Assembly: GCF_041886205.1 (NCBI RefSeq)
Contig: NZ_CP169029.1
Length of the DNA stretch: 64,000 nt
Origin: Escherichia coli
GTDB taxonomy: Bacteria > Pseudomonadota > Gammaproteobacteria > Enterobacterales > Enterobacteriaceae
Strand: one strand, 5' to 3'
Shown here in pieces: positions 12,444-37,926 of the stretch. Position numbers and translations under genes: made by a program. Under the pieces are notes generated by a model, which was not told where the DNA came from, did no database searches, and saw only the letters and a program-made list of their open reading frames with translations. Positions within the stretch are counted from its first letter, which is position 1; every line of letters begins with the position of its first letter.

Positions 12444-12536
12444 ATGACAATAGAAAAACACGAAAGAAGCACTAAGGATTTGGTGAAAGCAGCAGTATCG
12501 GGATGGCTGGGCACTGCGCTTGAATTTATGGATTTC
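12444..12536 (+). pseudogene. ydfJ: 5' fragment of ydfJ (MFS transporter) cut by prophage insertion
   Basis: MTIEKHERSTKDLVKAAVSGWLGTALEFMDF then diverges; the rest of the protein resumes in frame at 36643 (MDFQLYSLGAA...). Confidence 0.7.
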
Positions 12537-12573
12537 AAGAGTCATACGTGTCAACTATTTGATAAATATTAAA

Positions 12574-13869
12574 TTAATTTTTCATTGCTTCGTTATGGGG
12601 CATGGTTGGGGCAAACTCGCTTAACTGTGTATTTAACAAAGCTACCTGTGCATTATTGTTTTCAGACATCCATTTTCCGTATACCTGAAATACCATTTGC
12701 GCATCTGCATGGCCCATCTGGTTTGCTATAAATGCCGGGTTAGCACCAGCTGTCAGCGACCAGCAGGCATAAGTATGTCTCGACTGATATGATTTTCGAT
12801 GGCGGAGTCCGGCACGTTTTATCGCTGCGTCCCACATCTGCCTTATTGAGTCAACGGTAAAATGGTCACCATAATTTTTTACTCTCGCTGACACTTCAGG
12901 TTGAAAAACAAAGGTGCATTTATGTTTTTCTGTTCTGCCATACTCTCTGAGGTGAACATCAATGATATGCTCTTTGCTCAGTCTCGTTAATGTCATCTGA
13001 CTCCGGAGAGCGTCGATTGCTGGCTTAATAAGATGAATGACCCGATTGGTTCCCGCCTGTGTTTTTGGGACCGTGAAACGGTCTTTTGCTAAATTTCTCC
13101 TGATCATCATTGTTCCATTTTTCAGATCTATGTCCTCCCATCCAAGTGCACACAGCTCACCAGGGCGAACGCCAGTATAAACAGAAACACACCATAAATT
13201 TTTGGCTTGCTGATTTCTGCACGCATCGATAAGACGGATGAATTCCTCCCGCGAAAGAGGATCCGGAATGGTTCTTGATTCCTTTAATGGCGAGATCCCC
13301 TTAAACGGGTTATCTGCCAGGTAACCGTTATCAACACCAAACTGGAACACGGCGTTAAGATTTGTCATGTAATTATTTACAGTTACAGCCGATCTCCCTG
13401 GTTGTGTAACAATATAGTTACTTTTGGGGATCTGGTATCCAGTCAGTAGCTCTTTACGAACCTCCAGTAATTTTTCTTTATTAATCGATGAGGCAAGATT
13501 TTTTTCACCGATTATGCTCAGGATATTTTTGATGACGGCACGGTATGTGTTGAGTGATGTTTTGGCGACTTCAGTTTCTTTCAGTGCCAGAAATTTTTCA
13601 GCCAGTTCTTTTATGGTTAAATCTTGTCGGGCCTCACCAAATTTTTCCAGATTGCGTGAGGAGGGAAACTGTTTTGCATAGTCGAAAACACCAGTTTTTA
13701 TTGCGTAACAAACAGAGGAGCGTAGTTCACCTGCAACGCGCCTGTTTTTTGCTGTGTCAGGAACCCCCAGATTTTCCCTGACTCTTACGCCTTTATAAAC
13801 AAACCAGATACGTAATTTCCCTCCATGGTTTTCCACGCCTGTCGGATATTTCATTTCAACTTCTCTCAT
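12574..13869 (-). CDS. phage tyrosine integrase
   Basis: 431 aa; C-terminal catalytic region with R...HxxR...Y signature (RHTYACWSL...); located at the att junction. Confidence 0.9.
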   Translation of the reverse strand: MREVEMKYPTGVENHGGKLRIWFVYKGVRVRENLGVPDTAKNRRVAGELRSSVCYAIKTGVFDYAKQFPSSRNLEKFGEARQDLTIKELAEKFLALKETEVAKTSLNTYRAVIKNILSIIGEKNLASSINKEKLLEVRKELLTGYQIPKSNYIVTQPGRSAVTVNNYMTNLNAVFQFGVDNGYLADNPFKGISPLKESRTIPDPLSREEFIRLIDACRNQQAKNLWCVSVYTGVRPGELCALGWEDIDLKNGTMMIRRNLAKDRFTVPKTQAGTNRVIHLIKPAIDALRSQMTLTRLSKEHIIDVHLREYGRTEKHKCTFVFQPEVSARVKNYGDHFTVDSIRQMWDAAIKRAGLRHRKSYQSRHTYACWSLTAGANPAFIANQMGHADAQMVFQVYGKWMSENNNAQVALLNTQLSEFAPTMPHNEAMKN

Positions 13870-13888
13870 TAGTTAGTGTGGCTTTTAG

Positions 13889-14140
13889 TCAAGTAAGATG
13901 ACGTCTTGGTCTTGCTGATGCCTGGCGCTCAATCCAGCGATCAATTTCTTCCAGGTTGTAAAAGCATGGACTGTTATCCCATGGCATACCGTCATGAGCG
14001 ACATGCTTATATTCCCTTCCTTCCATAAACGATTTTTCCCGGGCCTTTTTTAACGTACCTTTTTTTATTCCTTTCAGCGCAATTAACTGCTCTTCGGATA
14101 CCCATTTGCCGGGAGAGACAATCATGATTACTTCGCTCAT
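13889..14140 (-). CDS. excisionase-like protein
   Basis: 83 aa; KWVSEEQLIALKGIKKGTL...GREYKHV pattern typical of lambdoid excisionase-like proteins; directly upstream of int. Confidence 0.6.
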   Translation of the reverse strand: MSEVIMIVSPGKWVSEEQLIALKGIKKGTLKKAREKSFMEGREYKHVAHDGMPWDNSPCFYNLEEIDRWIERQASARPRRHLT

Positions 14141-15989
14141 CGATTTCTTTATCTCTTACATCAGACGAGCGCCGGTTGCAGAATACCAGTCACAACCGGC
14201 GACAGTTGAACATTAAGAATCAGCCTGACTCGGGATCAGTTTTTGCCAGATAGCTGAAACGTATTTTGCCTGGTAACGGGCGTCATCAAGTGCATTATGG
14301 CGCTCACCTTCGAATGGAATAGCCGTTCTGGCATCGAAGTCTATGGCTTTCCCCAGCTCAACGATTGTGCGTACATCGCGATCGTTGTAGTAACGCCACG
14401 GGCAGGGGATCCCCTGCCGTTCGTATGAACGGCGCAAAATCGTGTTGTCGAAGTTGGCTCCATTTCCCCAGACATGAACAAAAAATTCACCGGAGTTTTC
14501 GTCGATAAATTCCCGCAATTGTAACAGTGCATCATCTAACGGGATTTCATCGGTCATAATGGCAGATTGCGCTTCGCGTGATTGTTTAAGCCACCATTTA
14601 ATGGTGTCCCGATCAATGACTCCGCCAGCAGTTTCCAGATCGATAGTCTTACTAAATTCCGGTCCCATATCTCCGGTTTGCGGATCGAAAAATATTGCAC
14701 CTATTGAGATAATCGGGGCATCGGGATTTTTTCCCATGGTTTCAAGGTCGATCATCAGATGAATCCCCGCTCTGCTGGTGGATGTGAGATTATGATGACC
14801 GTTTGCCTTAATTAAGGGATCTGACGCCTCGCCAGTTTCACTATCGCTGGCATGATGCTGATTGCCGCCAGTGTTCTCCTTGTGCTGATGCGCAGTGCCT
14901 TCTATTTCCTCCGGATCATTTTCCTGAACTTCAGGCTGATTCTCTCCATCGAATATTTCCTGGTATGTTGCGTCACCCATCACCGCACCACAATCAGGGC
15001 AGTTGCCGCCACCGCTCTGACCGCAGGCGGTGCAGATCTTTTCCGGTTCCTGTTGCACTACTGGTTCAGGTTGTTTCGTTTCTGGCTCGTTTTGTTGCAT
15101 ATTTGGGCTGTTTTGTTCCGCTTTCTGGTCGTTCTGTTCCGTTTCTTGCTGGTTCTGGTTCACAGAATCGCGGGTCTGGATCCCCTTAATCCATTTCGGA
15201 TCATTCGGGTCGCTAATCCCTTCAACAAATTCACCACGTGATACTGCAAGCAGTTCATCGGCGTCAGGCTGGCTGATATTGGCTGCCTGCATAATTTTGT
15301 TTACTTCGTCAGCGGTAACTTTTACTGACCCTGGTTGTGCGGTCGTGTCAGATGCACCAGTATTTTGTTGTGAACCTGAGTATGTACCGTTTTTGCGGGC
15401 GAAATATTCTTCTTTCGTGATTTCAGTAGCCCCAGCAGACAGCGCCTTATCCAGACCAGAAAGTTTATTTGCGCGACCGTATTTTTCGCCATCCTTGTCG
15501 GTGAAGAGGAAGTAGAACGGCCCCTCACGTTCTACAGATGGTTCGACTTCCACTTTGCATTCGGTTTTTTCGTTGTCTGGAATTGCCGTTTCCACTGCAT
15601 CAGTTTCTGGTACTGGCGACGAGAGAGTATCAGTTGCGCTCTGATTTGTTCCTTCATCTTCAAACACGCCCTTTGTAGTCAGGTATTCAGTAATGTATTT
15701 GTTCAGTGCCACAGGGTCTTTGTGAATGTCGATCGGACGTTCACGGACAAGGCCAAAAATAGTCTGGCGGTCGTAGCGAAGGGCATCAGGCTGTTTGCGC
15801 ATTGATGCCGAGATACGCTTCCAGTCTTCGCGGTCGTTGTCGATAACTTCATTTTTTGCCCAGCGATGGATGCTGCCGTCAATGTTTCCGGCATCCACAT
15901 CACCAGGCCAGAGAGCGTAGGCCAGTTCGTCATCCTGAACCGCCCCGGGAATCCTGGAGACTAAACTTCCTGAGAAAGAGGTAAACAGG

Positions 15990-16316
15990 ATGACTAAAAA
16001 TACTCGTTTTTCCCCCGAAGTCCGTCAACGGGCAGTCCGTATGGTTCTGGAAAGTCAGAGCGAATATGACTCACAATGGGCGACAATTTGTTCCATTGCT
16101 CCAAAGATTGGCTGTACGCCGGAGACTCTGCGTGTCTGGGTTCGCCAGCATGAGCGGGATACCGGGGGCGGTGATGGAGGGCTCACCACCGCTGAACGTC
16201 AGCGTCTGAAAGAGCTGGAACGTGAAAATCGTGAACTGCGCCGCAGTAACGATATCCTTCGCCAGGCTTCCGCTTATTTTGCGAAGGCGGAGTTCGACCG
16301 CCTCTGGAAAAAATGA
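15990..16316 (+). CDS. IS3-family transposase OrfA (HTH)
   Basis: 108 aa [21 protein letters not shown]...; leucine-zipper-like C-terminus. Confidence 0.85.
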
Positions 16317-17203
16317 TGCCACTGCTGGATAAGCTGCGTGAGCAGTACGGGGTCGGACCGCTATGCAGCGAACTGCATATTGCCCCGTCAACGTATTACC
16401 ACTGTCAGCAACAGCGACATCATCCGGATAAACGCAGTGCCCGTGCGCAGCGCGATGACTGGCTGAAGAAAGAGATACAGCGCGTATACGATGAAAATCA
16501 CAAGGTATACGGTGTGCGTAAAGTCTGGCGTCAGTTGTTACGGGAAGGTATCAGAGTGGCCAGATGCACTGTGGCACGTCTCATGGCGGTTATGGGACTT
16601 GCCGGTGTTCTCCGGGGTAAAAAGGTCCGTACGACCATCAGCCGGAAAGCCGTTGCCGCAGGCGACCGCGTAAACCGTCAGTTCGTGGCAGAACGACCTG
16701 ACCAGCTGTGGGTGGCTGATTTTACTTACGTCAGCACATGGCGGGGCTTCGTCTATGTGGCGTTCATCATTGATGTGTTTGCCGGATACATCGTGGGGTG
16801 GCGGGTCTCATCGTCCATGGAAACGACATTCGTGCTGGATGCACTGGAGCAGGCGTTATGGGCCCGTCGACCGTCCGGCACGGTCCATCACAGTGATAAA
16901 GGTTCTCAGTATGTATCGCTGGCCTACACACAGCGGCTTAAGGAAGCCGGATTACTGGCATCAACAGGAAGTACAGGCGACTCGTATGACAACGCGATGG
17001 CGGAGAGCATCAATGGTCTTTACAAAGCGGAGGTAATACACCGTAAGAGCTGGAAAAACCGTGCAGAAGTGGAACTGGCCACACTCACGTGGGTGGACTG
17101 GTATAACAATCGACGATTGCTGGAAAGGCTGGGCCATACTCCTCCGGCAGAAGCAGAAAAAGCTTATTATGCTTCCATCGGAAACGATGATCTGGCAGCC
17201 TGA
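16313..17203 (+). CDS. IS3-family transposase OrfB (DDE integrase core)
   Basis: 296 aa with rve-type DDE domain; overlaps orfA in -1 frame. Confidence 0.85.
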
Positions 17204-18017
17204 GTTCACAGATAAAACACTCTCCAGGAAACCCGGGGCGGTTCATCCAGTGTTTTCCATGTCTGCTTGTATTCGCGATGAATGGCAGCAATGACCGGGT
17301 TGATTTTTCCTGTTGAATTTTCAGTGTGCTGTTGATTGGCTCTGGCACGGGCGAGATCAACAACAGACGTGTATTTTCCGGCTTCCTTGCGTTCACCTTC
17401 GCGACGTTTTTTCCAGATGCGCATCTCTGCCTGAATTTCGGGCCATTTGGCACCAGGCTTACATTTATGCTTAACCCACCCGATGGCATGCAGCTTAAGC
17501 TCCGGATACATAGCGTTAACTTCTGGCATTTTCATCAACGCTTCAACGATATGGCCGTCGAATGTTGCCATGTCTTCCTGCAACAATTCCTGTGCGCTAA
17601 TCACCATATCAACAGTGATGTTTTCACATGTGTCGAACTTAACCATGACAGCGTTCTGTACTTCAGGGGCTAGGTTGTCAAAAGTGACGTTCATCGGATC
17701 GGATTCAGTCTCGACCGGGACAAAGGAAGCAGACGCCTCATCCCAGCGGTTTTCCTGCATATATTCAGCATCCCAGGAATCGAGGGCAGGGCGGGGTATA
17801 CCGGGTTTATCCTCGCAAACAAGAAATTTATAAGCGCAGTCCTGAGCAGCCGGATAATGTTCCAGGAATTGCCAGTGAAATTTTGCGCGGGCGCGACGTT
17901 CATCACCGGCTTCAATGGCAGTGGCTACAGTGAGACGAACTTCGCCGTGCGCTTTCGTGTTGTGTGCCTGCTTTTAACCACGTCAGGCGAGGTGGTATCC
18001 TTAAAATCACCACAGTT

Positions 18018-18593
18018 TTAAGGATTCATTAAGCAATGTCGCAACCACCAATAAATCCGCTTAAGAACATGAAAATTGATTACTGGTATAAAGCGCTTAC
18101 AGTTGTTGGCGCTGCGTTGTTTGTCTTTAATGGAACGTCTTTTTTTGACAGATATCCCGTTGTTCCATTGGATTTTTTGTCCTCCGGCATCTTTTTTATT
18201 GGTTTGGGGGAGTGGATTAATCACCCTCTCAAAGTGAGATTTATTGGTCCTGGAGTTTGGACTCGTGGATATAATCGTTCTTAGTGCGCACTCGGTATCA
18301 TCTTCGACATACTTGGTTGTTTCCTGATTGTTACAGGAGTCGTCAAGTTCTTCTGATGTAAAACCGCAAATGGGGCACGTAACGGGAATTTTGAAAAGCG
18401 TTTCTCCGGGTTCCAGAACAAAATTTTCTGCGGTCTGATTTTGCTTCTCATATTTGTGCTCCGCGTCATTGTGAGAGCACATTCTTATTCTGAGTGCCTG
18501 TTTAAACTCACTGAAGCTGAGAGCTTCTTCGCCTTCGGCAAGACCTTCGAAGTATTCTTCGTAAGCCTTTTCCATGATTGTGTCGAAATCCAT
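18018..18593 (-). CDS. hypothetical phage early protein; C-terminal half doubtful
   Basis: Start at MDFDTIMEKAYEEYF...; first ~110 aa look protein-like, the rest is K/R-rich low complexity and overlaps a plausible plus-strand ORF. Confidence 0.35.
   Translation of the reverse strand: MDFDTIMEKAYEEYFEGLAEGEEALSFSEFKQALRIRMCSHNDAEHKYEKQNQTAENFVLEPGETLFKIPVTCPICGFTSEELDDSCNNQETTKYVEDDTECALRTIISTSPNSRTNKSHFERVINPLPQTNKKDAGGQKIQWNNGISVKKRRSIKDKQRSANNCKRFIPVINFHVLKRIYWWLRHCLMNP
18036..18284 (+). CDS. hypothetical small membrane protein (two predicted TM helices)
   Basis: 82 aa with hydrophobic segments ALTVVGAALFVF and SGIFFIGLGEWI; RBS AAGGA upstream; lies antisense within the 18018-18593 ORF. 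Confidence 0.3.
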   Translation: MSQPPINPLKNMKIDYWYKALTVVGAALFVFNGTSFFDRYPVVPLDFLSSGIFFIGLGEWINHPLKVRFIGPGVWTRGYNRS

Positions 18594-18594
18594 A

Positions 18595-18831
18595 TCACTC
18601 ACCTGAGTTTCTTTCCAGCCAGCGACGGGCACCATTTTCGGTTTTAAACGTTTTGCTTTTGGTATACGTCATCGCGGTGAACGTACCGTCCTGGTTGGGG
18701 AACACGCCACATACCGGAGATTCGCTGTTGCCAAGATCGATAGTATCCATGCTGACCTCATTTCCCCTTAACGCCGGGGTAGCGGAACAAAAACCTGCTG
18801 CATAGTTATTAAAGTTGAACCCTGCCGTCAT
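18595..18831 (-). CDS. hypothetical phage early protein
   Basis: 78 aa ORF; stop overlaps next start (TGAtATG arrangement), suggesting translational coupling. Confidence 0.4.
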   Translation of the reverse strand: MTAGFNFNNYAAGFCSATPALRGNEVSMDTIDLGNSESPVCGVFPNQDGTFTAMTYTKSKTFKTENGARRWLERNSGE

Positions 18832-19047: not shown

Positions 19048-19467
19048 TTAAGAGGCTTTTTGTTTTTTCTTTCGTGCTAACTCTTCGTAAATTGCATTGT
19101 ACTTCTGTTTTTTCTCTTCAAGAGTTTTTAAAAGTTCATCTGTCTCACTGTCAGGGAGCTCGTCCAGAAGGTCAATGATGATTTTTTGTCTTGGATTTAA
19201 CTCCTGATAGAAACGTACCTGTCCACTTTCTTCTGTATCCTCTCCCAAAAGATAGGTTGGTGTTGTTCCTATTAGTGTTGCTAATTCCCTTAATTTCTCC
19301 CGGCGAGGAATTGTTTCGCCATTAAACCATTTGCTAACCGCTTTTGGTGTTAATTTCATTCGACGGGCAATTTCTGCCTGCCTTCCATGTTGTTCATAAC
19401 CAGCGTTTTCACAGGCTAGCGCAAGCCTACTGGCGAACTCTTTACGCGCTTTATCTTCATGAACCAT
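19048..19467 (-). CDS. prophage repressor, XRE-family HTH (RacR/DicA-like)
   Basis: 139 aa; HTH QAEIARRMKLTPKAVSKWFNGETIP; divergent from a Cro-like gene. Confidence 0.7.
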   Translation of the reverse strand: MVHEDKARKEFASRLALACENAGYEQHGRQAEIARRMKLTPKAVSKWFNGETIPRREKLRELATLIGTTPTYLLGEDTEESGQVRFYQELNPRQKIIIDLLDELPDSETDELLKTLEEKKQKYNAIYEELARKKKQKAS

Positions 19468-21828: not shown

Positions 21829-22223
21829 CGAGATTAAAGTGCATTAGTTCAGATGCAAATTGACATTTTGTGGCACAGGGTAGAGCTAGCGTGGTTGTCC
21901 GCTTTGTGCCAACAGCGGACATTATGGAAGGTCAGAGTTAAAGATTAAAATGGGATGCTGTGTGTTTTCTCCAGGTTTTGCTCTATACCTTTCGGGATAC
22001 TCCACCGACAGAATACGAAAATCAACATTATCAACGGCTCGAAGTGTCTAGATTATCCATGGCAATTCATGGGAAATCCCATCCAACGGCTTATGCTTCA
22101 TGTTGCTTTTTGAGATCGCTTCTAGCATAGCTCCACTCAATAATGTTGTCGGGTCGTTGCTGATCGAAAAGGATACGGGATTCAATACCATTACCTAAAA
22201 AGCTGGTACCGGAACTCGGGCTG

Positions 22224-23228
22224 GTGGTCGTTAAGCCGGGCCGTGAATCCATGCCGGTATTCCACAATACCCGGGTACTGGTGGAGCCGGAACCGAAAAG
22301 CATGCGTAATCTGCCGTCCGGGGTCGTTCCTGCCGTTCGCCAGCCGCTGGTGGAAGACAAAACATTGCTGCCGTTTTTCAGTAACGCACGGGTAATTCGT
22401 GCTGCTGGTGGTGCTGGTGCATTGTCTGACTGGCTGTTGCGCCATATTAAATCCTGCCAGTGGCCACACGGCGATTATCATCACAGCGAAACCGTTATTC
22501 ACCGATATGGTACCGGCGCAATGGTGTTGTGCTGGCACTGCGACAACCAGCTGCGTGACCAGACATCCGAATCACTCGAGCAACTTGCTCATCAAAACCT
22601 GTCAGCATGGATGATTGACGTCATCGGTCACGCAATAAGCGGTACGCAGGAGCGTGAATTATCTCTGGCTGAATTATCCTGGTGGGCGGTCCGCAATCAG
22701 CTGGCGGACGCGCTACCGGAAGCGGTATTACGTCGCTCGCTGGGATTACCAGCGGAAAAAATCTGCTCGGTGTACCGCGAAAGCGACATCGTACCGGGAG
22801 AGCAGACCGCCACCAGCATATTGAAACAGCGCACAAAAAATCTTGCACCGTTGCCTCACGCCCACCAGCAACAAAACCCATCACAGGAAAAGACGGTGGT
22901 AAGCATCACCGTTGATCCAGAGTCTCCGGAATCTTTCATGAAGCTGCCTAAACGTCACCGGTGGGTTAAGGAGAAATACACACGCTGGGTTAAGACACAG
23001 CCGTGTGCTTGCTGCGGTATGCCAGCCGACGATCCGCATCATCTGATTGGTCACGGGCAGGGCGGAATGGGAACCAAAGCACATGATCTCTTTGTTTTGC
23101 CTTTGTGCAGAAAGCATCACGACGAGTTGCATACGGATACCGTGGCATTTGAAGAGAAGTATGGCTCCCAACTGGAGCTGATTTTTCGATTTATCGATCG
23201 CGCGCTGGCAATTGGTGTGCTGGCCTAA
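22224..23228 (+). CDS. DUF968-type protein with C-terminal HNH-like motif (YdfU/NinG-like)
   Basis: 334 aa; C-terminus [21 protein letters not shown]...[10 protein letters not shown]; directly upstream of Q. Confidence 0.6.
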
Positions 23229-23245: not shown

Positions 23246-23623
23246 ATGCGTGATATTCAGATGGTTCTTGAGCGTTGGGGGGCATGGGCGGCTAATAATC
23301 ATGAAGATGTGACCTGGTCGTCCATTGCCGCCGGTTTTAAGGGATTAATTCCTTCAAAAGTAAGATCTCGTCCGCAATGCTGTGACGATGACGCGATGAT
23401 CATTTGTGAATGTATGGCTCGCCTGAAAAAAAACAACAGCGATTTACATGATTTATTGGTGGACTATTATGTCGGCGGCATGACTTTTATGGCGCTTGCA
23501 CATAAGCATGGGCGATCTGATTGTTGGGTTGGCAGGATGCTCCAGAAAGCTGAGGGCGTAGTGGAGGGCATGCTGATGGTGTTGGATCTCCGATTGGAGA
23601 TGGATGCTGATTGTTCGAAATAA
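23246..23623 (+). CDS. quuQ: late-gene antiterminator Q
   Basis: 125 aa [24 protein letters not shown]...; recognised from memory as near-identical to the Qin antiterminator. Confidence 0.75.
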
Positions 23624-23778: not shown

Positions 23779-24303
23779 TTATTGTTTAACCCATAATAGT
23801 TCATTGACATTGAATCCCAACTTTTGAGCGGTACGCACATAGTCTGCTTTTACATTATCTGGAATAGTTTGGGTCCTTGCCAGAATCCATAGGTATTCTC
23901 TGTTCGGACCACTGACAAGAGCATACTTATACTCATCATCCAGTTTGATTACATTATAGCCACCATAGAAGGGGCCAAAAAACGAAACTTTCAACGCTGC
24001 AGTTTTAGTATCTCCAGTAAAGTATGCTTTACCTTCGCTCTCGCTCCATTTGTTTTTCGTTGGATCGTATCCACGGTTAAGTACGCGAATCCCTCCGTCG
24101 TTCCGTTTTTCATAAGTAGCGCTGACCTGTTCCAGACCACGTTCGAACCAGTTCTCGAGGCGAGCTATTTCATACCATTTTCCGAGGTAGCGGTTGGCGT
24201 CAAAATTTGTAATCGGCTGCACACCTTTAGGTGGTGTCGGGGCCTTACATGCTATAAGAGTGAAAGAGAGTGCAATGCCAGTCAACACAGGCCATAACTT
24301 CAT
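23779..24303 (-). CDS. bacterial lipocalin (Blc-like outer-membrane lipoprotein)
   Basis: 174 aa; lipobox LIAC; lipocalin motifs NFDANRYLGKWYEIARL and YKYALVSGPNREYLWILAR. Confidence 0.8.
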   Translation of the reverse strand: MKLWPVLTGIALSFTLIACKAPTPPKGVQPITNFDANRYLGKWYEIARLENWFERGLEQVSATYEKRNDGGIRVLNRGYDPTKNKWSESEGKAYFTGDTKTAALKVSFFGPFYGGYNVIKLDDEYKYALVSGPNREYLWILARTQTIPDNVKADYVRTAQKLGFNVNELLWVKQ

Positions 24304-24495
24304 AATAAATCCTGTACTTTTGATAGTTGAGAGTAAGTATGAAAGATAGATGAGTACGACCGATCACTTAAAGAACTTTCCTACTATATTAGGAATAGTC
24401 AATAACAGAAAAATTGTCAGTGATGAAGCCAGAAAGGCAATTTAGTCCGTGCACTACAAAGTTTATGTGTTAATGAATTAGTCAAGGGGGAGGAA

Positions 24496-25455
24496 ATGAT
24501 AAAAAAACCTGTGATTGGGATCAGCGGTTGTTTGGGCGGTTCTGCTGTTCGTTTTGATGGTGGTCACAAAAGAGATGACTTTTTAATGGACAAATTAGTG
24601 GAATGGGTAACATTCAGACCAGTATGTCCGGAAATGGCTATAGGGCTGCCAGTTCCGCGTCCTGCTCTACGACTTGTGCGCTCGAAGCAAGGAAATATAC
24701 GGATGTGTTTCAGCCACGACCAGAATGAGGATGTGACAGAGAGAATGACAGAGTTTAGTCGTTCTTATATGGACAAATTAAAGGATGTATCGGGGTTTGT
24801 GGTTTGTGCTAAATCTCCCAGCTGTGGCATGGAGCGCGTGCGTGTCTATGATGAAAATGGTAATCGAGGTCGTAAAGATGGAGTGGGACTATTTACGAGC
24901 ACTTTGATGGAAAAGTTTTCCTGGCTACCGGTTGAAGAGGATGGGCGATTACATGATCCAGTGCTTCGTGAGAATTTTATTGAAAGAGTTTTTGCTTTGC
25001 ATGAGCTCAATCACCTTTACAAGGAGAAATTATCAAGAAGAGAGTTATTAGCTTTTCATAGTCGTTATAAGCTTCAGTTGTTGGCGCATAGCCAGGCAGG
25101 CTATAAAGATATGGGACCATTTGTGGCTGCAATACACGAGTGGGCGGACCTTGAATCATACTTTGAGGTGTATCGTGATAATCTGATGGCGATTCTCAGA
25201 AAACCAGCATCACGTAAAAATCACACGAATGTGCTGATGCATATACAGGGGTATTTTAGTAATTACTTAAGTACACGCCAGCGTAAAGAGTTGAGCGAGG
25301 TTATACTTAACTATCGCTTTGGCACATTGCCTCTTCTTGCGCCGTTGACTCTGCTGAAGCATTATCTGGGTGAGTATCCTAATGATTACTTGCTTACACA
25401 GAATTACTTCGATCCCTATCCGGAAGAACTGGCTCTAAGACTGATGGTGAATTAA
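24496..25455 (+). CDS. DUF523-DUF1722 fusion protein (TudS/YbgA-like)
   Basis: 319 aa; N-terminal Cys-containing DUF523-like region (GISGCLGGSAVRFDGG, CPE, SPSCG); C-terminal YbgA-like region. Confidence 0.65.
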   Translation: MIKKPVIGISGCLGGSAVRFDGGHKRDDFLMDKLVEWVTFRPVCPEMAIGLPVPRPALRLVRSKQGNIRMCFSHDQNEDVTERMTEFSRSYMDKLKDVSGFVVCAKSPSCGMERVRVYDENGNRGRKDGVGLFTSTLMEKFSWLPVEEDGRLHDPVLRENFIERVFALHELNHLYKEKLSRRELLAFHSRYKLQLLAHSQAGYKDMGPFVAAIHEWADLESYFEVYRDNLMAILRKPASRKNHTNVLMHIQGYFSNYLSTRQRKELSEVILNYRFGTLPLLAPLTLLKHYLGEYPNDYLLTQNYFDPYPEELALRLMVN

Positions 25456-25852: not shown

Positions 25853-26575
25853 GTGGATAATATGTCATACATATGTTCTATCATTTTGGTGTTGAACTCG
25901 TTTGGTGTCCGAATTGGTAAAGAAGATATTTTGTTTAAAAAAGGAAATGCTGTCCTCATTGAATACAATTTAAAAGATCTTTTTTCGTCAAATACAGATC
26001 ATCTAATGATCGTAGATGTTGAGGAGAAAACAGTTAATGATTTCTTTAAAAACTACACACTCTCACCTTTTTCTGTAAGAAGGTTTTATCCGTCATACTT
26101 GATAGTAGAATGTGAAGATTTTTCATTGTTAAAGAACTTGGTTGCATGCTTGAATTGTGATAGCAAAACCGTGGATGTAGTTAGAAATCAAATATCACTT
26201 GCATGTCTTGCTGTCTTATCTTCAGAGAAAATAGTGCAAAGTTTTTTGTTCGGAAGTCTTAATAGCTTAGGTTGTAAAGTTAAGGCTATTATTCACTCGG
26301 ATATCTCAGCGTCATGGAGACTTTGTGATATATCTTCAAGATTATATATGAGCGAGAGTTTGTTAAAAAGAAAATTAAAAGACGAAGGATTATCGTTTAG
26401 TAAATTAATTCTTGAAGAACGAATGATGATGGCGCAAAGATTATTGATCTACAGTAACCATACTGTCGGCAAGGTGGCGGGAATATGCGGGTATGACAAT
26501 GCATCATATTTTGTAAGTGTTTTTAGAGGATATTTTGGTGTGCCTCCGCACCAATATTTATCAAGATTTTCTTAG
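25853..26575 (+). CDS. AraC/XylS-family transcriptional regulator (AppY/YdeO/GadX-like)
   Basis: 240 aa; C-terminal AraC HTH (GICGYDNASYFVSVFRGYFGVPPHQY); AT-rich gene and flanks. Confidence 0.75.
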   Translation: MDNMSYICSIILVLNSFGVRIGKEDILFKKGNAVLIEYNLKDLFSSNTDHLMIVDVEEKTVNDFFKNYTLSPFSVRRFYPSYLIVECEDFSLLKNLVACLNCDSKTVDVVRNQISLACLAVLSSEKIVQSFLFGSLNSLGCKVKAIIHSDISASWRLCDISSRLYMSESLLKRKLKDEGLSFSKLILEERMMMAQRLLIYSNHTVGKVAGICGYDNASYFVSVFRGYFGVPPHQYLSRFS

Positions 26576-27827: not shown

Positions 27828-28320
<493 letters not shown>

Positions 28321-28683
28321 GGTAATATTAAATCGGAACATTTACATCGCGGAATGTAAAATTTAAATAAAAAGGACTCTTCCATGAGCCAAAATTCCTG
28401 AAATCTTAAGGGTAAGATAAAAGGTCTTAATCAGAATGACACGTTATTATTAATAAATAAAGCTATTCTTTCATTGCTGTGTTTTTCTTTACAAAAGTAA
28501 TCCTTGCTATGGGTGGTTAATCATGCGTTAATGGTGTTCTGGTTTGTTACAAATTTATCTGAAGCAGTCATTGTTATAATTTTATTATTTGTACCTCTTG
28601 AGATTTCCTTGTTGGTTTTTCTCTCTGATATTTTTTTTCGGACCATTCTGCCCAAGGGCTAATTTCTTCAAAAGGTAATAATT

Positions 28684-28896
28684 ATGTCTAACAAAATGAC
28701 TGGTTTAGTGAAATGGTTTAACCCTGAAAAAGGTTTTGGTTTCATCACGCCGAAAGATGGCAGCAAAGATGTGTTTGTCCATTTCTCAGCAATTCAGAGC
28801 AACGATTTCAAAACATTAACTGAGAATCAGGAAGTTGAATTTGGTATTGAGAACGGACCTAAAGGTCCTGCCGCTGTTCATGTAGTGGCGCTTTGA
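28684..28896 (+). CDS. cspI: cold-shock protein (CspA family)
   Basis: 70 aa [23 protein letters not shown]...; long upstream leader typical of csp genes. Confidence 0.9.
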
Positions 28897-29167
28897 GGTA
28901 GACAATATTACAAACCATATTCACTTTAGATGCCCGTGTTGTCATGGTTCCCAGTATAGAACATCATCTTTTGATGTTTCTGACATGAATCCTTTCGGGG
29001 CAAAATGTATCTTTTGTAAATCAATGATGATTACATTTGATAATATTTCACAATACTTAAATGCCAGCCGTCTGTCGTTGGATTTAAAAAAGTGAAAATG
29101 AAGGCTCCTTCGGGAGTTTTTTTGCTTGGTATCTATTCGATGGATACTCACATACTACGGTAACATC

Positions 29168-29398
29168 ATGAAAAAAATCATAGTTTTTTTTAACTCTGAA
29201 CCAGCAGTGGTAGTGCCAGCGATGACTGGAGTTAACACCATCATGCGTGAATATCCAAATGGCGAAAAAACACACCTTACTGTAATGGCCGCAGGGTTTC
29301 CATCTCTGACCGGAGATCATAAAGTCATTTATGTAGCAGCGGATCGACATGTAACTTCAGAAGAAATTCTGGAAGCAGCAATGAGACTCTTGAATTGA
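29168..29398 (+). CDS. hypothetical small phage protein
   Basis: 76 aa from MKKIIVFFNSEPAVVV...; the track ORF starts at an upstream TTG. Confidence 0.45.
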   Translation: MKKIIVFFNSEPAVVVPAMTGVNTIMREYPNGEKTHLTVMAAGFPSLTGDHKVIYVAADRHVTSEEILEAAMRLLN

Positions 29399-29570
29399 TT
29401 TGATTCTAATGCATTGATAATAAATGATAATCATCTTTATCTGTTTGTGTGAAATTTAGACCGTCGTATGTTGATTATTGCGATGTTTCATCTTATCTTT
29501 TATACGTTTGCTCCATATAATTGACACTACTGTGTACCAGGACAGTCATAACAGACTAAAAGAGGAAATG

Positions 29571-29744
29571 ATGAACATTGAAGAGTTAAAAACAAAAACA
29601 GAAGCAGATATTTCTGAATATATAACAAAAAAAATCATTGAGCTTAAGAAAAAGACCGGGAAAGAAGTTACCAGTATCCAGTTTACTGCACGGGAAAAAA
29701 TGACTGGTCTTGAAAGCTATGATATCAAGATTGATTTAATCTAG
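29571..29744 (+). CDS. gnsB: GnsA/GnsB-family small protein
   Basis: 57 aa MNIEELKTKTEADISEYITKKIIELKKKTGKEV...; RBS AGAGGAAATG. Confidence 0.75.
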   Translation: MNIEELKTKTEADISEYITKKIIELKKKTGKEVTSIQFTAREKMTGLESYDIKIDLI

Positions 29745-30039
29745 CATGTTTATAGTATTAGCATCAATTTCTCATCAGATGCTATTCAACAATACAAATT
29801 ACCCATAAACCTCGTTTTTACGGGGTTTTGTTATATTTAAACATTACCGAATAGATATAAATCTCGATTGTCGATGGTATTGGTTATGTGACAATACCTA
29901 GTCTTTCCGGTATGCCTGAAGAGAATACAAACGACAGATTATGTAAGGGAAACGCGCTGAAACTTTCACTCTTTCATGCTGAGTGATTTGACGTTATATT
30001 TTTAGCCGCAAGTGAAGAGCAAACGAATGGAGCGACAAA

Positions 30040-30246
30040 ATGCATAAAGATCAATACACTGATGCCCCCTCCCAGGAGCAGGTTCGTGTAAAAACTATGC
30101 TTAATAGCACCATTTCGATGGGTTACCCGGATGTTGTAATTGCATGTATAGAACATCAAGTATCTCTGGAAGCATTCAGGGCAATTGAGGCCGCGTTAGT
30201 AAAGCACGATAAGAATACGAAGGATTATTCCCTGGTGGTTGACTGA
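30040..30246 (+). CDS. hypothetical protein
   Basis: 68 aa with GGAG RBS 11 nt upstream; no recognisable family. Confidence 0.3.
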
Positions 30247-30469: not shown

Positions 30470-30838
30470 GAAACACCAAACGGGACGGTTACAGTCACCA
30501 TAAGCGATGATCATAACTTTGACCGTCAAATCATTATTCCGCCCATTATCTTTAACGGAATAGCGTATAGCGATCCGGGAAGTGGTAATAACCCGGGAGG
30601 TACAAGATACACGGGTTATGGTTTTGAAGTTCGCAAAAACGGTGTATTAATCGCATCCAGAGAAACTAAAGGGGCCATTCCCGGTAGCTACAGTGCGGTT
30701 ATTGATATGCCGAGTGGCAGGGGAAGCGTCACTCTGGAGTTTAAGGTTTTCCATAAAGGCAATCAGTGGGCAGGTAATATCACCGACTGTACGGTGATTG
30801 TGACCAAAAAAGCCGCTTCCGGCATCAGTATTCGTTGA
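30470..30838 (+). pseudogene. start-less 3' gene remnant (about 122 codons) ending at a terminator; possibly a tail-gene relic
   Basis: Open frame with no ATG/GTG/TTG for the first ~77 codons; upstream frames suggest a frameshifted longer gene; synteny position upstream of lom. Confidence 0.3.
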
Positions 30839-30907: not shown

Positions 30908-31507
30908 ATGCGTAAACTTTATGCCGCCATTTTGTCCGCAGCCATTTGTCTGGCCGTATCCGGTGCGCCTGCATGGGCATCTGAACATCAGTCCACGCTG
31001 AGCGCGGGGTATCTTCATGCCTCGACGAACGTTCCCGGCAGCGATGATCTTAACGGGATTAACGTGAAATACCGTTATGAGTTTACGGACACACTGGGGC
31101 TGGTGACGTCATTCAGCTATGCAGGAGACAAGAATCGCCAGCTTACCCGTTACAGCGATACCCGCTGGCATGAAGATTCCGTGCGTAACCGCTGGTTCAG
31201 CGTGATGGTGGGGCCGTCTGTGCGCGTGAATGAATGGTTCAGCGCGTATGCGATGGCGGGTGTGGCTTACAGCCGTGTGTCGACTTTCTCCGGGGATTAT
31301 CTCCGCGTAACTGACAACAAGGGGAAAACGCACGACGTGCTGACCGGAAGTGATGACGGTCGCCACAGCAACACGTCTCTGGCGTGGGGAGCTGGCGTGC
31401 AGTTTAACCCGACCGAATCCGTGGCCATTGATATTGCTTATGAAGGCTCCGGCAGTGGCGACTGGCGCACTGACGGTTTCATCGTGGGTGTCGGTTATAA
31501 GTTCTGA
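30908..31507 (+). CDS. lom: Ail/Lom-family outer-membrane beta-barrel protein
   Basis: 199 aa; signal peptide; alternating beta-strand pattern ending ...GVGYKF; sits before stf as in lambda. Confidence 0.8.
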
Positions 31508-31533
31508 TTAGCCAGGTAACACAGTGTTATGAC

Positions 31534-31560
31534 AGCCCGCCTGTTCAGGCGGGCTTTTTT
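31534..31560 (+). terminator. Rho-independent terminator after lom
   Basis: Stem AGCCCGCC/GGCGGGCT, loop TGTTCA, then T6. Confidence 0.65.
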
Positions 31561-31565
31561 GTGGG

Positions 31566-34618: not shown

Positions 34619-34715
34619 GGTAAAACATATAAATTCTATAATTAGATGTATCTTTCCATTTACGGCAAGGAAGGGGGCTTGGAACACGTAAAGCATCTCA
34701 CACCGAGATTATTTT

Positions 34716-35306
34716 TTATATGTCAGGTGTCTGAAGTTTTGCTTTGGCTCTTAAAATGGTTTGCCGCGAGGTTTTGAATTCCCGGGCAATGGCACTTATA
34801 CTTACACCTGACTTAATTCGTTCGAATACCACCTGTTTCTGTTCTTCATTTAACACAGGTGGTCGACCAAAACGTTTCCCTGCGCCGCGGGCTCTTACTA
34901 TCCCGGAATGAGTGCGTTCAAGTAAAAGGTCTCGTTCAAATTCAGCGACTGCTGAAATTACTTGCATCATCATTTTTCCTGTTGGACTGGTCAGGTCAAT
35001 GCCACCCAATGCTAAGCAATGCACTCTGATACCTGTTTCGGTCAGTTGTTCCACTGTTTTCCTGATATCCATTGCATTACAACCAAGGCGATCCAGTTTT
35101 GTCACAATCAATTGATCACCACATTTCAGGCGAGCAAGCAACCGGTTAAAACCAGGACGCTCACTGGTTGCTGCTGAGCCGCTAATGTGTTCTTCGATTA
35201 TTTGCTGAGGTTTGATTTTAAAACCTGCACTTTCGATTTCCCGGCGTTGATTTTCGGTGGTCTGATCCAGCGTTGATATCCGACAGTAAGCAAAAATTCG
35301 AGACAT
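34716..35306 (-). CDS. serine recombinase / DNA invertase (Pin/Gin/Hin family)
   Basis: 196 aa [20 protein letters not shown]... with catalytic Ser and C-terminal HTH. Confidence 0.9.
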
Positions 35307-35623
35307 AGTGAGACTCTATTCGAAATTGGTGTTCATATCATAATGCATCTCAGAAAATAATTATGATTATTTTTGTGCATATTTGTATGTACACGTTCGA
35401 AAATAAACGAATGCGTATGCAACCCCGTAATTTTTGGTGAGACCCAAAATCGATTTTGTGAAAAATGGCTTTAACTTGGTTTGTTTTTCGAGTTCCGGGC
35501 GGGCTCAAGGAAGAAGAATAGTGTTGCGTGTTATTTTAACCAGATTTCAAGTTGTTTGGACGTGGAAAAGTGGAGCAAAATGTTGTTAAAGTGGAAAAAT
35601 GATAAAAAAGTAAGTTTATTATA

Positions 35624-35857
35624 TTACATTTTACCATTTAAATTTTGGTTGTCTTTAAGAACTGATATCGCTGTTTGTAATAATTCTTTGTTATCCAGCC
35701 ATGATTTTTTCTTTATGTTTCCTTCAATGTAATCAAGCAATGTTCTGGTATTAATAGGTCTTCCCTGTTTTGCTACTTCCACTACAGCATCCCCTAGGAT
35801 AATTCTTACTTCAGGAAGCTGCGCAGGGAACCACTTAAGGGTGTCTTTTGATTTCAT
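35624..35857 (-). CDS. ydfK: YdfK/YnaE-family small protein
   Basis: 77 aa from MKSKDTLKWFPAQLPEVRIILGD...; last gene before the right junction. Confidence 0.75.
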   Translation of the reverse strand: MKSKDTLKWFPAQLPEVRIILGDAVVEVAKQGRPINTRTLLDYIEGNIKKKSWLDNKELLQTAISVLKDNQNLNGKM

Positions 35858-36642
35858 GAAGATATTCCTTAAAATATTATTGATTTTCATTGCGATATTG
35901 TATGTCTGATTCAGGATATGTTGACTTATACATCGGTTTTGTCTGGGTTATTGGATATGCCAATCCCTAATTTTATTAGGGCATGACTAAAAATGCTGAA
36001 TATGATAAGGAGAGAAGTGATTATCAGTATGCTGTTCATATAGCCTCGAATTAGTAATGTGTTATATATGATATAGTTGACAATTTTTATCTTGGGTGTT
36101 TTTAAAGTTCGTAGATAAACATTGTCGTTTCAGGTATACAGGAATGCTAGCAGGTGGCAGCAAAAATCAGGCGGTTTATGGCGCAAGCTGAAGCGGCAAC
36201 TGCAAACTATCTTATGCAGAGACTCTACACGGATTGGGTTTAAAAGTATACATAGATAACAGTTTTTATCTGAAAAAGAAAAATATCAAGGTGATATAGC
36301 CTATATGCCTTTGATGCGGAGGAATGACTGTGATGGGAGTGATGTATCTGAATAGTTGAAAAAACGCAGACACGCCTTATGCAAGAACGTGCTGCGGTTG
36401 GCTGGTAAATTTTTCGATAGTGTGAGTATTGAATGATTTCCAGCCGTTCTTGATTTTACGCATAAATCCATGAAAAAACTACTTATCTGTTGGGGAGTTT
36501 TTTTGGGGCATATATGGGACAGAAATAGGCCCCAGATAGACACTGAGATCGAACTTAGGATGCTTTTTAAAAAATGCAACTATCTGAAAAAACCTAGAAA
36601 ACGCCAAGGAAACCACAGGATGGGAAAAAACACCTGTGAATT

Positions 36643-37926
36643 ATGGATTTCCAGTTATATTCGCTCGGCGCAGCGTTAGTGTTTCATGAAATATTTTTTC
36701 CTGAATCATCAACGGCAATGGCGTTAATTCTGGCAATGGGAACCTACGGTGCAGGTTATGTGGCGCGTATTGTCGGAGCATTTATTTTCGGCAAAATGGG
36801 CGACAGAATAGGGCGTAAAAAAGTGCTCTTTATTACCATCACCATGATGGGGATCTGTACTACCTTAATTGGTGTGCTGCCGACCTATGCACAAATTGGT
36901 GTTTTTGCACCCATCTTGCTGGTGACGCTGCGTATTATTCAGGGGTTGGGTGCAGGTGCGGAAATTTCCGGTGCCGGTACGATGCTGGCGGAATATGCGC
37001 CAAAAGGTAAGCGCGGAATTATCTCCTCATTTGTGGCTATGGGAACTAACTGCGGAACCTTGAGCGCAACGGCAATCTGGGCCTTTATGTTCTTCATTCT
37101 CAGTAAAGAGGAACTGCTGGCGTGGGGATGGCGTATACCGTTCCTGGCGAGCGTTGTCGTGATGGTCTTTGCTATCTCGTTACGTATGAATCTGAAAGAA
37201 AGCCCGGTCTTTGAGAAGGTTAATGACAGCAACCAACCGACAGCAAAACCTGCACCTGCTGGTAGCATGTTCCAGAGCAAATCCTTCTGGCTGGCAACAG
37301 GGCTGCGTTTTGGTCAGGCGGGTAACTCCGGGTTAATTCAGACTTTCCTTGCAGGCTATTTAGTGCAGACGTTATTGTTTAACAAAGCAATTCCAACAGA
37401 TGCATTGATGATTAGTTCGATTCTCGGCTTTATGACCATTCCGTTCCTTGGTTGGTTATCCGATAAAATTGGTCGCCGGATCCCGTATATTATTATGAAT
37501 ACCTCCGCGATTGTGCTGGCATGGCCAATGCTTTCTATCATCGTAGATAAAAGCTATGCCCCGAGCACCATTATGGTTGCACTGATTGTGATTCATAACT
37601 GTGCGGTGCTGGGATTATTTGCTCTGGAAAACATTACCATGGCAGAAATGTTCGGCTGTAAAAACCGCTTTACCCGGATGGCTATTTCTAAAGAAATTGG
37701 TGGTCTTATCGCTTCCGGTTTTGGTCCTATCCTGGCGGGTATTTTCTGCACCATGACGGAATCCTGGTATCCGATCGCCATTATGATCATGGCATATTCA
37801 GTGATTGGTTTAATCTCTGCGCTGAAAATGCCAGAGGTGAAAGACCGTGATTTAAGTGCGCTGGAAGACGCTGCGGAAGATCAACCGCGTGTTGTAAGAG
37901 CTGCGCAACCTTCCAGAAGTCTGTAA
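36643..37926 (+). pseudogene. ydfJ: 3' portion of ydfJ (MFS transporter), 5'-truncated by the prophage
   Basis: 427 aa MFS protein lacking about the first 30 aa and first TM helix, which are at 12444-12536. Confidence 0.7.

Follow-up and report, generated by a model that had tools for sequence, protein, structure and literature searches.

The 64,000-nt window, i.e., the whole stretch of DNA analysed here, carries the MFS transporter gene ydfJ in two parts. The 5' fragment (12444..12572, + strand) comprises 28 host codons and an 11-bp core and runs into prophage DNA, giving on translation a 42-codon ORF; its K-12 counterpart is annotated at the matching place as ynfP. The 3' fragment (36643..37926, + strand) is a 427-aa ORF starting from an ATG within the second core, lacks the promoter and the initial 28 codons of the gene and is identical in size to the 427-aa ydfJ of the K-12 annotation. 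Such a loss of 28 ydfJ codons through Qin at the 5' end of the gene is already in print (PMC6379469). Between both fragments lies an element (12526-36651) with an inserted length of 24,115 bp, in agreement with the original prediction of a defective lambdoid prophage of about 24.1 kb splitting ydfJ.

Attachment sites

The window contains exactly two copies of the 11-mer TTATGGATTTC, the attL core at 12526..12536 and the attR core at 36641..36651, both on the + strand. With 967 exact 11-mer direct-repeat pairs in the window, one such pair carries little weight by itself, and it is the placement of TTATGGATTTC which gives it meaning. Both copies are located at the homology breakpoints: the empty site of LHM10-1 aligns to positions 12000-12539 and 36637-37200, the overlap being a single core copy only. 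Joining the flanks resulted in one ORF of 1368 nt (455 aa), and intact ydfJ references fit this junction. A 1400-nt joined-flank query, containing a segment of rspB, the spacer and the larger part of ydfJ, matched in a single place in 2011 of 5426 complete E. coli genomes, with 99.0-99.8% identity among the matches listed, which are annotated as rspB and "MHS family MFS transporter YdfJ." Moreover, attL equals exactly attB-left, core and attP-right, and attR equals attP-left, core and attB-right. The reconstructed attP (2200 nt) was found contiguous, at 98.7-99.4% identity, in four free phages, namely mEp460_ev081 (LR597641), Tritos (OV696610), HannyBb and PhiR42_1, in which attP, int and xis lie together.

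The large number of 11-mer pairs would be compatible with a chance repeat or a target duplication left by transposition instead of a site-specific recombination core, but the probability of this is close to nil. In fact, such an origin is refuted by the position of the repeat exactly on both breakpoints, by its single copy in empty sites and at the predicted attP of the free phage genomes, and by the exact recombinant ends. The same repeat also bounds independent ydfJ prophages in FG92-1, wlxctx60 and 19KM2326N as well as Qin of K-12 MG1655 (NC_000913.3 1632277-1652745), where the spacing of the copies, 20,469 bp, corresponds to the annotated Qin length, and genes for a tyrosine integrase and an excisionase adjoin attL in the element. 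Since the joined ydfJ is intact, K-12 Qin carries the same 11-mer at the same site and attP is contiguous in four free phages, the two copies of TTATGGATTTC are the true attL and attR cores, as had been proposed.

Integration, immunity and replication genes

The element encodes an intact IntQ-type tyrosine integrase of 426 aa (12574..13854, - strand; PHROG integrase profile, E 1e-76) featuring the Pfam domains Arm-DNA-bind_2 and Phage_integrase, i.e., arm-binding and catalytic domains. It is identical to the mEp460 integrase at 425 of 427 positions (100% by blast) and shares 97% identity with the intQ remnant of K-12, and the excisionase (83 aa; 13889..14140, - strand; PHROG excisionase, E 1e-35) matches that of mEp460 at 83 of 83 positions. 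In K-12 Qin, which does not excise, intQ is dead, broken by IS2, whereas int and xis are both intact in the window. Considering that Int, Xis and the two att arms hardly differ from the versions of viable phages, the remnant may plausibly still be able to excise and thereby restore the whole ydfJ; according to the literature, mEp460_ev081 is a Qin-related temperate phage that is functional (PMC10448788).

At higher coordinates, a ydfE-type large exonuclease gene (- strand) is interrupted by IS1203, an IS629-like member of the IS3 family. Mapping to relatives and PHROG exonuclease profiles place the 3' part at 14213..15935 (profile positions 263-822 of 823) and the 5' part at 17246..17933 (positions 80-252). 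The insertion sequence itself spans 1310 bp (15936..17245, + strand), with terminal inverted repeats TGAACCGCCCCGGG, orfA (15990-16316), orfB (16313-17203), an ALIL frameshift pseudoknot (16271-16387) and a 3-bp target duplication, TCC, at 15933-15935 and 17246-17248; matching copies are labelled "IS3-like element IS1203 family" in RefSeq. The exonuclease shares 99% identity with mEp460 and 96% with K-12 ydfE. The gene has lost the initial 64 nt and with them the start codon, as homology to mEp460 stops at 28855 and the gene starts at 28919. This end coincides with the first deletion junction (17926..17933; microhomology TACAGTGA), where approximately 0.93 kb comprising the exonuclease start, ydfD, dicB and dicF is missing. 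None of the latter three was found anywhere in the window, an Rfam search gave no DicF match, and all three are present in three of the related sequences compared.

Beyond this junction, a 205-aa ORF (18018-18635, - strand) with phrog_35040 and phrog_751 matches across 18018..18750 is followed in the same stretch and orientation by a ydfB remnant and ydfA (DUF1391, 18595-18750), assigned by annotation transfer from a relative. The adjacent module encodes a CI-type repressor of 139 aa with an XRE HTH (19048..19467, - strand), assigned by a PHROG transcriptional regulator profile and a weak DicA-family match, whose counterpart in Tritos is annotated as "CI repressor." PHROG profiles and the annotation of Tritos and another relative further point to a Cro-like regulator (19475 or 19547 to 19801, + strand) and a YdaT/CII-like protein (19798-20223, + strand), and these are followed by a replication initiator or replisome organizer (20289 to 21365, + strand; phrog_3729, E 3e-257) and a DUF977/Ren-like protein (21406-21828, + strand; phrog_142). 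A second junction (22203..22208; microhomology CTGGTA) precedes the 5'-truncated ydfU (DUF968/HNH-like; 22224..23228, + strand; phrog_96 profile positions 17-334), the product of which is 91% identical to K-12 YdfU. Compared with FG92-1, 3.8 kb encoding a hypothetical gene, AbiH and hokD, together with the first codons of ydfU, are absent here.

The original prediction had considered this early region Rac-like, and a hybrid prophage with an int-to-replication half from Rac and a late half from Qin would be in line with the order of the repressor, Cro-like, YdaT-like and replication genes, which resembles racR-ydaS-ydaT-ydaU, and with the presence of a YdaT-family protein. Within the early half, however, the nucleotide sequence resembles Rac only in patches of 128-453 bp at 71-87%, the integrase is only 43% identical to IntR and the exonuclease 39% identical to RecE, RecT, KilR and SieB are all missing, the YdaT-like protein shares 33% identity with Rac YdaT (36% with the Qin-region match), and the replication protein has no real match to YdaU or YdaV. 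K-12 Rac furthermore occupies ttcA, not ydfJ, contains recET, kilR and sieB, and differs from the element in its immunity and replication genes. Instead, the immunity and replication module shows 97% nucleotide identity to the free phage Tritos and represents a third type, neither that of Rac nor that of K-12 Qin. High identity to Rac is confined to the right end (lom, stf N-terminus, tfa, pin, ynaE/ydfK, ynaM/ynfT; 94.5-99.5% at the nucleotide level), where lom, stf, tfa and pin are common to Qin and mEp460. We therefore regard a Rac-derived early half as very improbable and abandon this part of the prediction.

Late region and loss of the structural genes

The late region opens with a Q-family antiterminator of 125 aa (23246..23623, + strand; phrog_79, E 5e-50). 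Between Q and the lysis genes sits a cargo block (23779..26575) encoding, according to NCBIfam and RefSeq annotation, the lipocalin Blc (23779-24303, - strand), a YbgA-type DUF523+DUF1722 protein (24496-25455, + strand) and an AraC-family regulator resembling YdeO/GadX (25862-26575, + strand); the Q-Blc-YbgA portion is 91% identical to Lambda_ev phages and the block up to the holin gene 94% to phage IdasGreatGrand. PHROGs identified the holin gene essQ (26766-26981), ydfR (26986-27297), the endolysin gene rrrQ (27294-27827) and the Rz spanin gene (27824-28320), all on the + strand. Alignment with the intact rzpQ of FG92-1 revealed a frameshift in the latter, an A8 run being one A shorter; since this is a homopolymer, the frameshift could also reflect a sequencing error. 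Expression of Q, holin and endolysin, the genes of which are intact, is probably blocked by the repressor still encoded in the element. Further along the + strand (28538..30246) follow cspI with a cspA-type 5' thermoregulator (Rfam RF01766, NCBIfam), then ynfQ, ynfR and ynfN, as well as gnsB (29571-29744) and a conserved 68-aa ORF (30040-30246), assigned by NCBIfam, PHROGs and annotation transfer.

At 30470..30475, a third junction with the microhomology GAAACA fuses the equivalents of mEp460 coordinates 45469 and 17990. The equivalent of mEp460 45470-45865 plus 1-17989, approximately 18.4 kb, is missing, and with it the genome ends (cos), both terminase subunits, portal, capsid and head, tail tube and shaft, tape measure and most of J; the same junction recurs in only one of the 5426 genomes, wlxctx60. 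What is left of the tail-tip gene J are its last 122 codons (30470..30838, + strand; phrog_2148 profile positions 784-900 of 901), labelled "phage tail tip domain, incomplete" by RefSeq in wlxctx60. Adjacent are genes for the outer-membrane protein Lom (30908..31507, + strand; phrog_108, E 7e-110), the side tail fibre (stf, 31566 to 34043, + strand) and the tail-fibre assembly protein (tfaQ, 34043-34618, + strand), the latter two identified by PHROGs and 96-99% identical to their Qin, Rac and mEp460 counterparts. An IS009 RNA-family match falls within tfa. The serine DNA invertase gene pinQ (34716..35306, - strand; phrog_125, E 7e-69) encodes a Pin 99-100% identical to PinQ and PinR, and a search for inverted-repeat crossover sites flanking pin found none. 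Sequence comparison, PHROGs and annotation place ydfK (35624-35857) and ynfT (35926-36039) at the right end, both on the - strand.

Profile searches thus recovered the predicted int, xis, immunity, replication, Q, lysis, stf/tfa and pin genes, and the PHROG and NCBIfam inventory of the element contained no terminase, head or tail-shaft genes. The intact Int, Xis, repressor, Cro, replication initiator, Q, holin and endolysin might suggest a still viable inducible prophage or a satellite packageable by a helper phage. This is scarcely credible given that cos, terminase, portal, capsid, tail tube, tape measure and most of J are absent, the gene inventory holds no capsid-redirecting or packaging genes, and the exonuclease and Rz genes are broken. 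Owing to the loss of the packaging site and of the entire set of head and tail genes, no virus particles can be formed, and the element is a cryptic prophage capable neither of DNA packaging nor of particle building.

Relatives and decay of the prophage

K-12 Qin shares with the element the integrase type, ydfE/exo, ydfA/ydfB and ydfU. Consistent with the Qin-like late region originally proposed, the block essQ-ydfR-rrrQ-rzpQ-cspI-ynfQ-ynfR-ynfN-gnsB is common to both at 94.8% nucleotide identity, and the end stfQ(3')-tfaQ-pinQ-ydfK-ynfT at 98.7%. Present in K-12 Qin but absent from the element are the dicA/dicC immunity genes, dicF, dicB, ydfD, relBE, hokD, flxA, rem, cspB, cspF, a 250-aa Q (ydfT), nohA, ydfO and ynfO, whereas the element features the Tritos-type module, the 125-aa Q, the blc-ybgA-araC cargo, the J remnant, lom and full-length stf. 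The free phages have the same lambdoid gene order, and of 24,104 bp in the element, 17,983 are covered jointly by mEp460 and Tritos with at least 85% identity. The four phages are, however, 45-49 kb in size and contain cos, a complete head/tail module, an intact exonuclease, ydfD-dicB-dicF, hok and an intact Rz, which are lacking or broken in the element.

None of the 5426 complete E. coli genomes carried the whole element, the best coverage being 83%, and the reconstruction relies on two partial relatives and the free phages. The ydfJ prophage of FG92-1 (NZ_CP142677) matches the int-to-gnsB part at 99.7-99.9%, but retains dicB/dicF/ydfD, a cargo block containing AbiH, and terminase, portal and tape-measure fragments. 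That of wlxctx60 (NZ_AP045833) is 99.94% identical over 23138-37200, including the junction of the 18.4-kb deletion, and displays another large deletion in its early region, which extends from the exonuclease to ydfU and is distinct from those of the element. The IS1203 insertion is absent in both.

Altogether, the element is very likely a strain-specific decay state of a Qin-family lambdoid prophage that entered ydfJ by att-core integration. A phage of the mEp460/Tritos type was probably integrated by its lambda-Int-type tyrosine integrase via attP x attB recombination at the TTATGGATTTC cores within codons 28-31 of ydfJ, so that the remainder of the gene was cut off from the promoter and the initial 28 codons. 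Three microhomology-flanked deletions followed, of 18.4 kb (removing cos and all head and tail genes as far as the last 122 codons of J), 0.93 kb (removing the exonuclease start and the host-toxic ydfD-dicB-dicF) and 3.8 kb (adjoining ydfU), the lengths being approximate, as present-day relatives with 85-100% identity served as the reference instead of the true ancestor. In addition, an IS1203 copy jumped into the exonuclease gene, and a 1-nt frameshift would have knocked out Rz.

Both the location of Qin in ydfJ and its variable size, ranging from 11 to 97 kb, have already been published (PMC6379469); the element is an ordinary strain-specific remnant of this well-known E. coli prophage at its usual site, and only the present decay state is private to the strain. 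Five features, i.e., IS1203, the dicB/dicF/ydfD loss, the ydfU-side deletion, the J remnant and the Rz frameshift, extend beyond the original prediction.

Attachment core and the ydfJ site

The 64-kb window contains exactly two copies of an 11-mer (TTATGGATTTC), both in the same orientation (12526-12536 and 36641-36651). By itself such a pair is insignificant, since the window contains 967 exact 11-mer direct-repeat pairs, and it is the position of the copies that decides. The original prediction had taken them for the attL and attR cores of a prophage splitting ydfJ, and this was borne out by the empty site, the attP of free phages and the exact attB x attP recombinant structure of both ends. 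In silico excision of 12537-36651 and joining of the flanks gave a 1368-nt ORF of 455 aa, restoring the ydfJ frame as had been proposed. The 1400-nt joined flanks matched in a single place, with this ORF intact, in 2011 of 5426 complete E. coli genomes (99.0-99.8% identity among the matches listed); the uninterrupted ydfJ site is hence found in about 37% of them, and the annotation of the matched empty sites gives rspB and then “MHS family MFS transporter YdfJ”. Aligned to the empty site of strain LHM10-1, the window gave two parts (12000-12539 and 36637-37200) overlapping only in a single core copy, i.e., a clean insertion of 24,115 bp, in agreement with the anticipated 24.1 kb, with its breakpoints at the core. 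Neither of the two conditions named in advance as refuting the prediction, an intact ydfJ that fails to match the joined flanks or a repeat away from the homology breakpoints, thus applied.

The predicted attP of 2200 nt, in which one core links the 700 nt preceding attR to the 1500 nt following attL, was contiguous in four free phage genomes (mEp460_ev081, hereafter mEp460, as well as PhiR42_1, HannyBb and Tritos) at 98.7-99.4% identity. In three of these four linear records it lies mid-record, followed by int and xis, and mEp460 has a single core copy. Consistently, attL of the window is exactly attB-left, core and attP-right, and attR is attP-left, core and attB-right, the core being common to all four sites; the predicted attB junction is GCGCTTGAAT-TTATGGATTTC-CAGTTATATT and the circular attP junction CACCTGTGAA-TTATGGATTTC-AAGAGTCATA. 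The cryptic prophage Qin of K-12 is bounded by the identical 11-mer with identical 12-nt host flanks at both ends, and its two cores are spaced 20,469 bp, precisely the length given in the annotation to the feature “cryptic prophage Qin”; in FG92-1, wlxctx60 and 19KM2326N, this sequence likewise bounds the prophage in ydfJ. The repeat is the true att core, fixed to the base by the three-way comparison of empty site, free phages and prophage. In the attR arm next to ydfJ' (36643-37926), predicted promoters and terminators were no more numerous than in shuffled sequence.

Integrase and relationships to Qin, Rac and free phages

Adjoining attL, int (12574-13854, minus strand) encodes an N-terminal arm-binding domain (PF12167, E 4e-23) and a C-terminal tyrosine recombinase catalytic domain (PF00589, E 8e-18), and is followed by xis (13889-14140, minus strand), a PHROG excisionase. 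Both Int domains, the adjacent Xis and the short identical attB/attP core together define a lambda-Int-type tyrosine integrase with excisionase. Int is of the IntQ type: aligned with the K-12 intQ remnant across 397 residues, it shows 97% amino acid identity, and at nucleotide level 12000-13733 is 99.1% identical. Against mEp460 Int, 425 of 427 aligned positions agree (100% by blast). Xis is identical to that of mEp460, and the attL arm equals the phage sequence over 300 nt.

Qin is known to integrate site-specifically at the 5' end of ydfJ, whereby YdfJ loses 28 codons (PMC6379469), and the element shares both this insertion site and the K-12 Qin att core. Moreover, the Qin late genes essQ, ydfR, rrrQ, rzpQ, cspI, ynfN, gnsB, stfQ, tfaQ, pinQ and ydfK are present (92-100% amino acid identity where tested), in late blocks collinear with K-12 Qin at 94.8% and 98.7% nucleotide identity. 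In contrast to K-12 Qin, however, neither the dicA/dicC immunity genes nor the dicBF operon (dicF sRNA, dicB, ydfD) is matched in the element, and its repressor is only 29% identical to DicA. Within a mosaic family this is a module difference and not another integration system: the immunity and replication module reaches 29-36% identity at best to K-12 Qin and Rac, but 97% nucleotide identity to Tritos.

The observations of the original prediction were thus confirmed, while its interpretation as a Rac-like early region joined to a Qin-like late region held only for the late part. Rac occupies ttcA and carries IntR, recE-recT and racR-ydaS-ydaT, whereas the element sits at ydfJ, its Int is 43% identical to IntR, its exonuclease 39% to RecE and its YdaT-like protein 33% to YdaT, and a RecT match is absent. 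The exonuclease is instead 96-99% identical to the Qin/mEp460 type. A Rac origin of the early region was consequently rejected on nucleotide and protein identity to K-12 Rac; the strong Rac match (94.5-99.5%) is the right end with lom, the stf N-terminus, tfa, pin and ydfK, an end common to Rac, Qin and mEp460. Of the remaining parts, Q-blc-ybgA matches Lambda_ev phages at 91%, the block on to the holin matches phage IdasGreatGrand at 94%, and lysis-to-gnsB matches mEp460 at 97.5% next to the 94.8% for K-12 Qin. Jointly, mEp460, which PMC10448788 describes as a functional, Qin-related temperate phage, and Tritos span 17,983 of 24,104 bp with at least 85% identity. By these identities, the element belongs to the Qin family throughout, with an immunity module of the Tritos type.

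Gene content and decay

Genes were annotated by two routes, transfer from RefSeq records 99.7-100% identical and separate profile searches, in which PHROGs were required for phage genes and NCBIfam was informative for few. After xis follow an exonuclease gene, a 205-aa ORF without known function and ydfA. The large exonuclease gene is cut by an insertion sequence of 1310 bp (15936-17245) with inverted repeats TGAACCGCCCCGGG and a 3-bp target duplication (TCC). Its size, terminal repeats, orfA/orfB with frameshift signal and 3-bp duplication identify it as IS1203/IS629 (IS3 family), as do a transpos_IS3 match (E 1e-93), an ALIL pseudoknot (120 bits) and the RefSeq name of matching copies, “IS1203 family.” None of the 5426 complete E. 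coli genomes was judged to share this IS/exonuclease insertion, because the only high-coverage junction matches (eight) are two-piece, with a span of 200-700 bp.

The following region comprises a CI-type repressor (19048-19467, minus strand), genes for a Cro-like and a YdaT/CII-like protein, the replication initiator and DUF977 genes, ydfU truncated at its 5' end and a Q antiterminator of 125 aa. The cargo genes that separate Q from the holin (23779-26575) encode a Blc lipocalin, a DUF523/DUF1722 protein of the YbgA type and a regulator of the AraC family; the best match of this regulator, YdeO/GadX (E 9e-33), lies below the cut-off. In EHEC, prophage-borne regulators of this type are known to modulate acid resistance. 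This block sits where Stx phages carry their stx genes. Downstream lie the lysis genes (holin, ydfR, endolysin, Rz), cspI with its thermoregulator leader (a cspA-type Rfam match at 28538-28923, 113 bits), ynfQ, ynfR, ynfN, gnsB and a 68-aa ORF. The right end carries the last 122 codons of J, lom, stf, tfa and, on the minus strand, pin, ydfK and ynfT before attR; a further Rfam match, to the IS009 RNA family, lies inside tfaQ (34386-34584, 221 bits). Although a serine invertase is present, there is a single tfa gene only, and a search of 31000-36700 for inverted repeats found no well-matched pair around the stf 3' end and tfa that would correspond to the ~26-bp crossover sites of an invertible segment. 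The best pairs were 70-75% complementary, i.e., of chance quality, and a Pin-invertible tail-fibre segment of the Pin/Gin/Cin kind was therefore rejected. Nine of ten proteins looked up are present in other E. coli sequences, six of them as exact sequences on at least 1000 contigs each; for Stf as delimited, this look-up of E. coli proteins gave no exact match.

Mapping to mEp460, Tritos and FG92-1 defined three deletions, each flanked by short microhomology. At junction 1 (17926-17933, TACAGTGA), 0.93 kb was lost with the first 64 nt of the exonuclease gene, ydfD, dicB and dicF. The latter three are all present in FG92-1, mEp460 and Tritos and are absent from the entire window in searches with Rfam at the gathering threshold (DicF) and blastn-short with the K-12 sequences. 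Junction 2 (22203-22208, CTGGTA) lacks 3.8 kb relative to FG92-1, comprising a hypothetical gene, AbiH, hokD and the ydfU start. At junction 3 (30470-30475, GAAACA), mEp460 position 45469 is joined to 17990, so that mEp460 45470-45865 and 1-17989 have no counterpart. These ~18.4 kb include the genome ends (cos), both terminase subunits, portal, capsid, head-tail connectors, tail tube, tape measure and most of J.

Since packaging and structural genes are deleted, the element is not a complete lambdoid phage of the mEp460/Tritos group but is defective in packaging and morphogenesis, a cryptic prophage as originally proposed; a satellite or helper-dependent element was rejected given the loss of cos. 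It represents a clean case of microhomology-flanked decay in which packaging, structural and host-toxic dicBF-ydfD genes are gone, while lysis, cold-shock, Lom, tail-fibre and regulator cargo was kept. The Rz spanin gene (27824-28320) is frameshifted relative to the intact FG92-1 rzpQ by A8 to A7 near 27900, which may reflect a genuine mutation or a sequencing error in the homopolymer. The ORFs of repressor, Cro, replication initiator, Q, holin and endolysin are intact, and these, like int, xis and the att arms, are probably functional.

In related ydfJ prophages and phages, the slot between the DUF977 gene and ydfU, deleted in the window, holds variable cargo: a hypothetical gene and AbiH in FG92-1 (locus L002, 10914-13303), a 1087-aa hypothetical gene and a small ORF in 19KM2326N (L006, 13866-17497), an ImmA/IrrE-type protein in Tritos (L010, 33876-38090) and relBE-hokD-flxA in K-12. 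This slot appears to be a defence- or toxin-gene hotspot.

Distribution, possible excision and further loci

Qin was reported in 48% of 638 strains, and its size ranged from 11 to 97 kb among 189 strains (PMC6379469). An identical element was found in none of the 5426 complete E. coli genomes; the best coverage (83%) was reached in FG92-1-like strains, which retain terminase, portal and tape-measure fragments. Junction-specific searches recovered junction 3 from a single genome, wlxctx60, and neither junction 1 nor junction 2 from any. With neither the exact element nor these two junctions in any complete genome, this decay state is private to the strain's lineage, whereas the kind of element is thoroughly known: a new but unremarkable decay state of Qin. 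Beyond correct annotation it carries little weight, as K-12 Qin at ydfJ is annotated with boundaries as here, site, truncation and size range are published (PMC6379469), and viable relatives, e.g., mEp460, have been noted (PMC10448788).

The sole mildly interesting point is the intact int/xis pair and perfect att sites on a remnant that cannot be packaged. The 425/427 identity to the Int of a viable phage suggests that the integrase could still catalyze integration and excision, and with this pair intact the allele may be able to excise, whereupon ydfJ would become intact again. In K-12, by contrast, intQ is an IS2-interrupted pseudogene and Qin excision is undetectable. As Int, Xis and both att arms resemble those of a viable phage and exact excision rebuilds ydfJ with its promoter, the remnant could conceivably act as a reversible or one-way YdfJ switch, an “active lysogeny” by a cryptic prophage, with K-12 Qin locked by comparison. 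The toxic dicBF-ydfD genes have been lost privately, which would be in keeping with a switch undergoing domestication, yet we consider this low-probability role very unlikely.

Elsewhere in the window, the divergent marC-marRAB promoter region contains a 0.79-kb insert not in K-12 (49938-50724), which separates marR (49374-49808, minus strand) from marC (50743-51408, plus strand). Its two overlapping small ORFs, one of 106 aa (50028-50348; phrog_2523, and a weak “toxin” match) and a 94-aa XRE-HTH protein (50338-50622), resemble a type II toxin-antitoxin pair, and at least 1000 E. coli contigs encode the 94-aa protein in identical form. Of the diguanylate cyclase gene dgcF, the window has the full-length version (462 aa, ORF 57854-59242), while K-12 lacks ~0.5 kb at its 5' end (window 57759-58256) and has a shorter gene annotated. 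Finally, collinearity with K-12 stops just beyond tam (62849-64000), where K-12 has lsrG and the lsr operon; in their place, 62891-63937 (minus strand) encodes an IS200/IS605-type TnpB-like transposase (phrog_506, E 8e-124).
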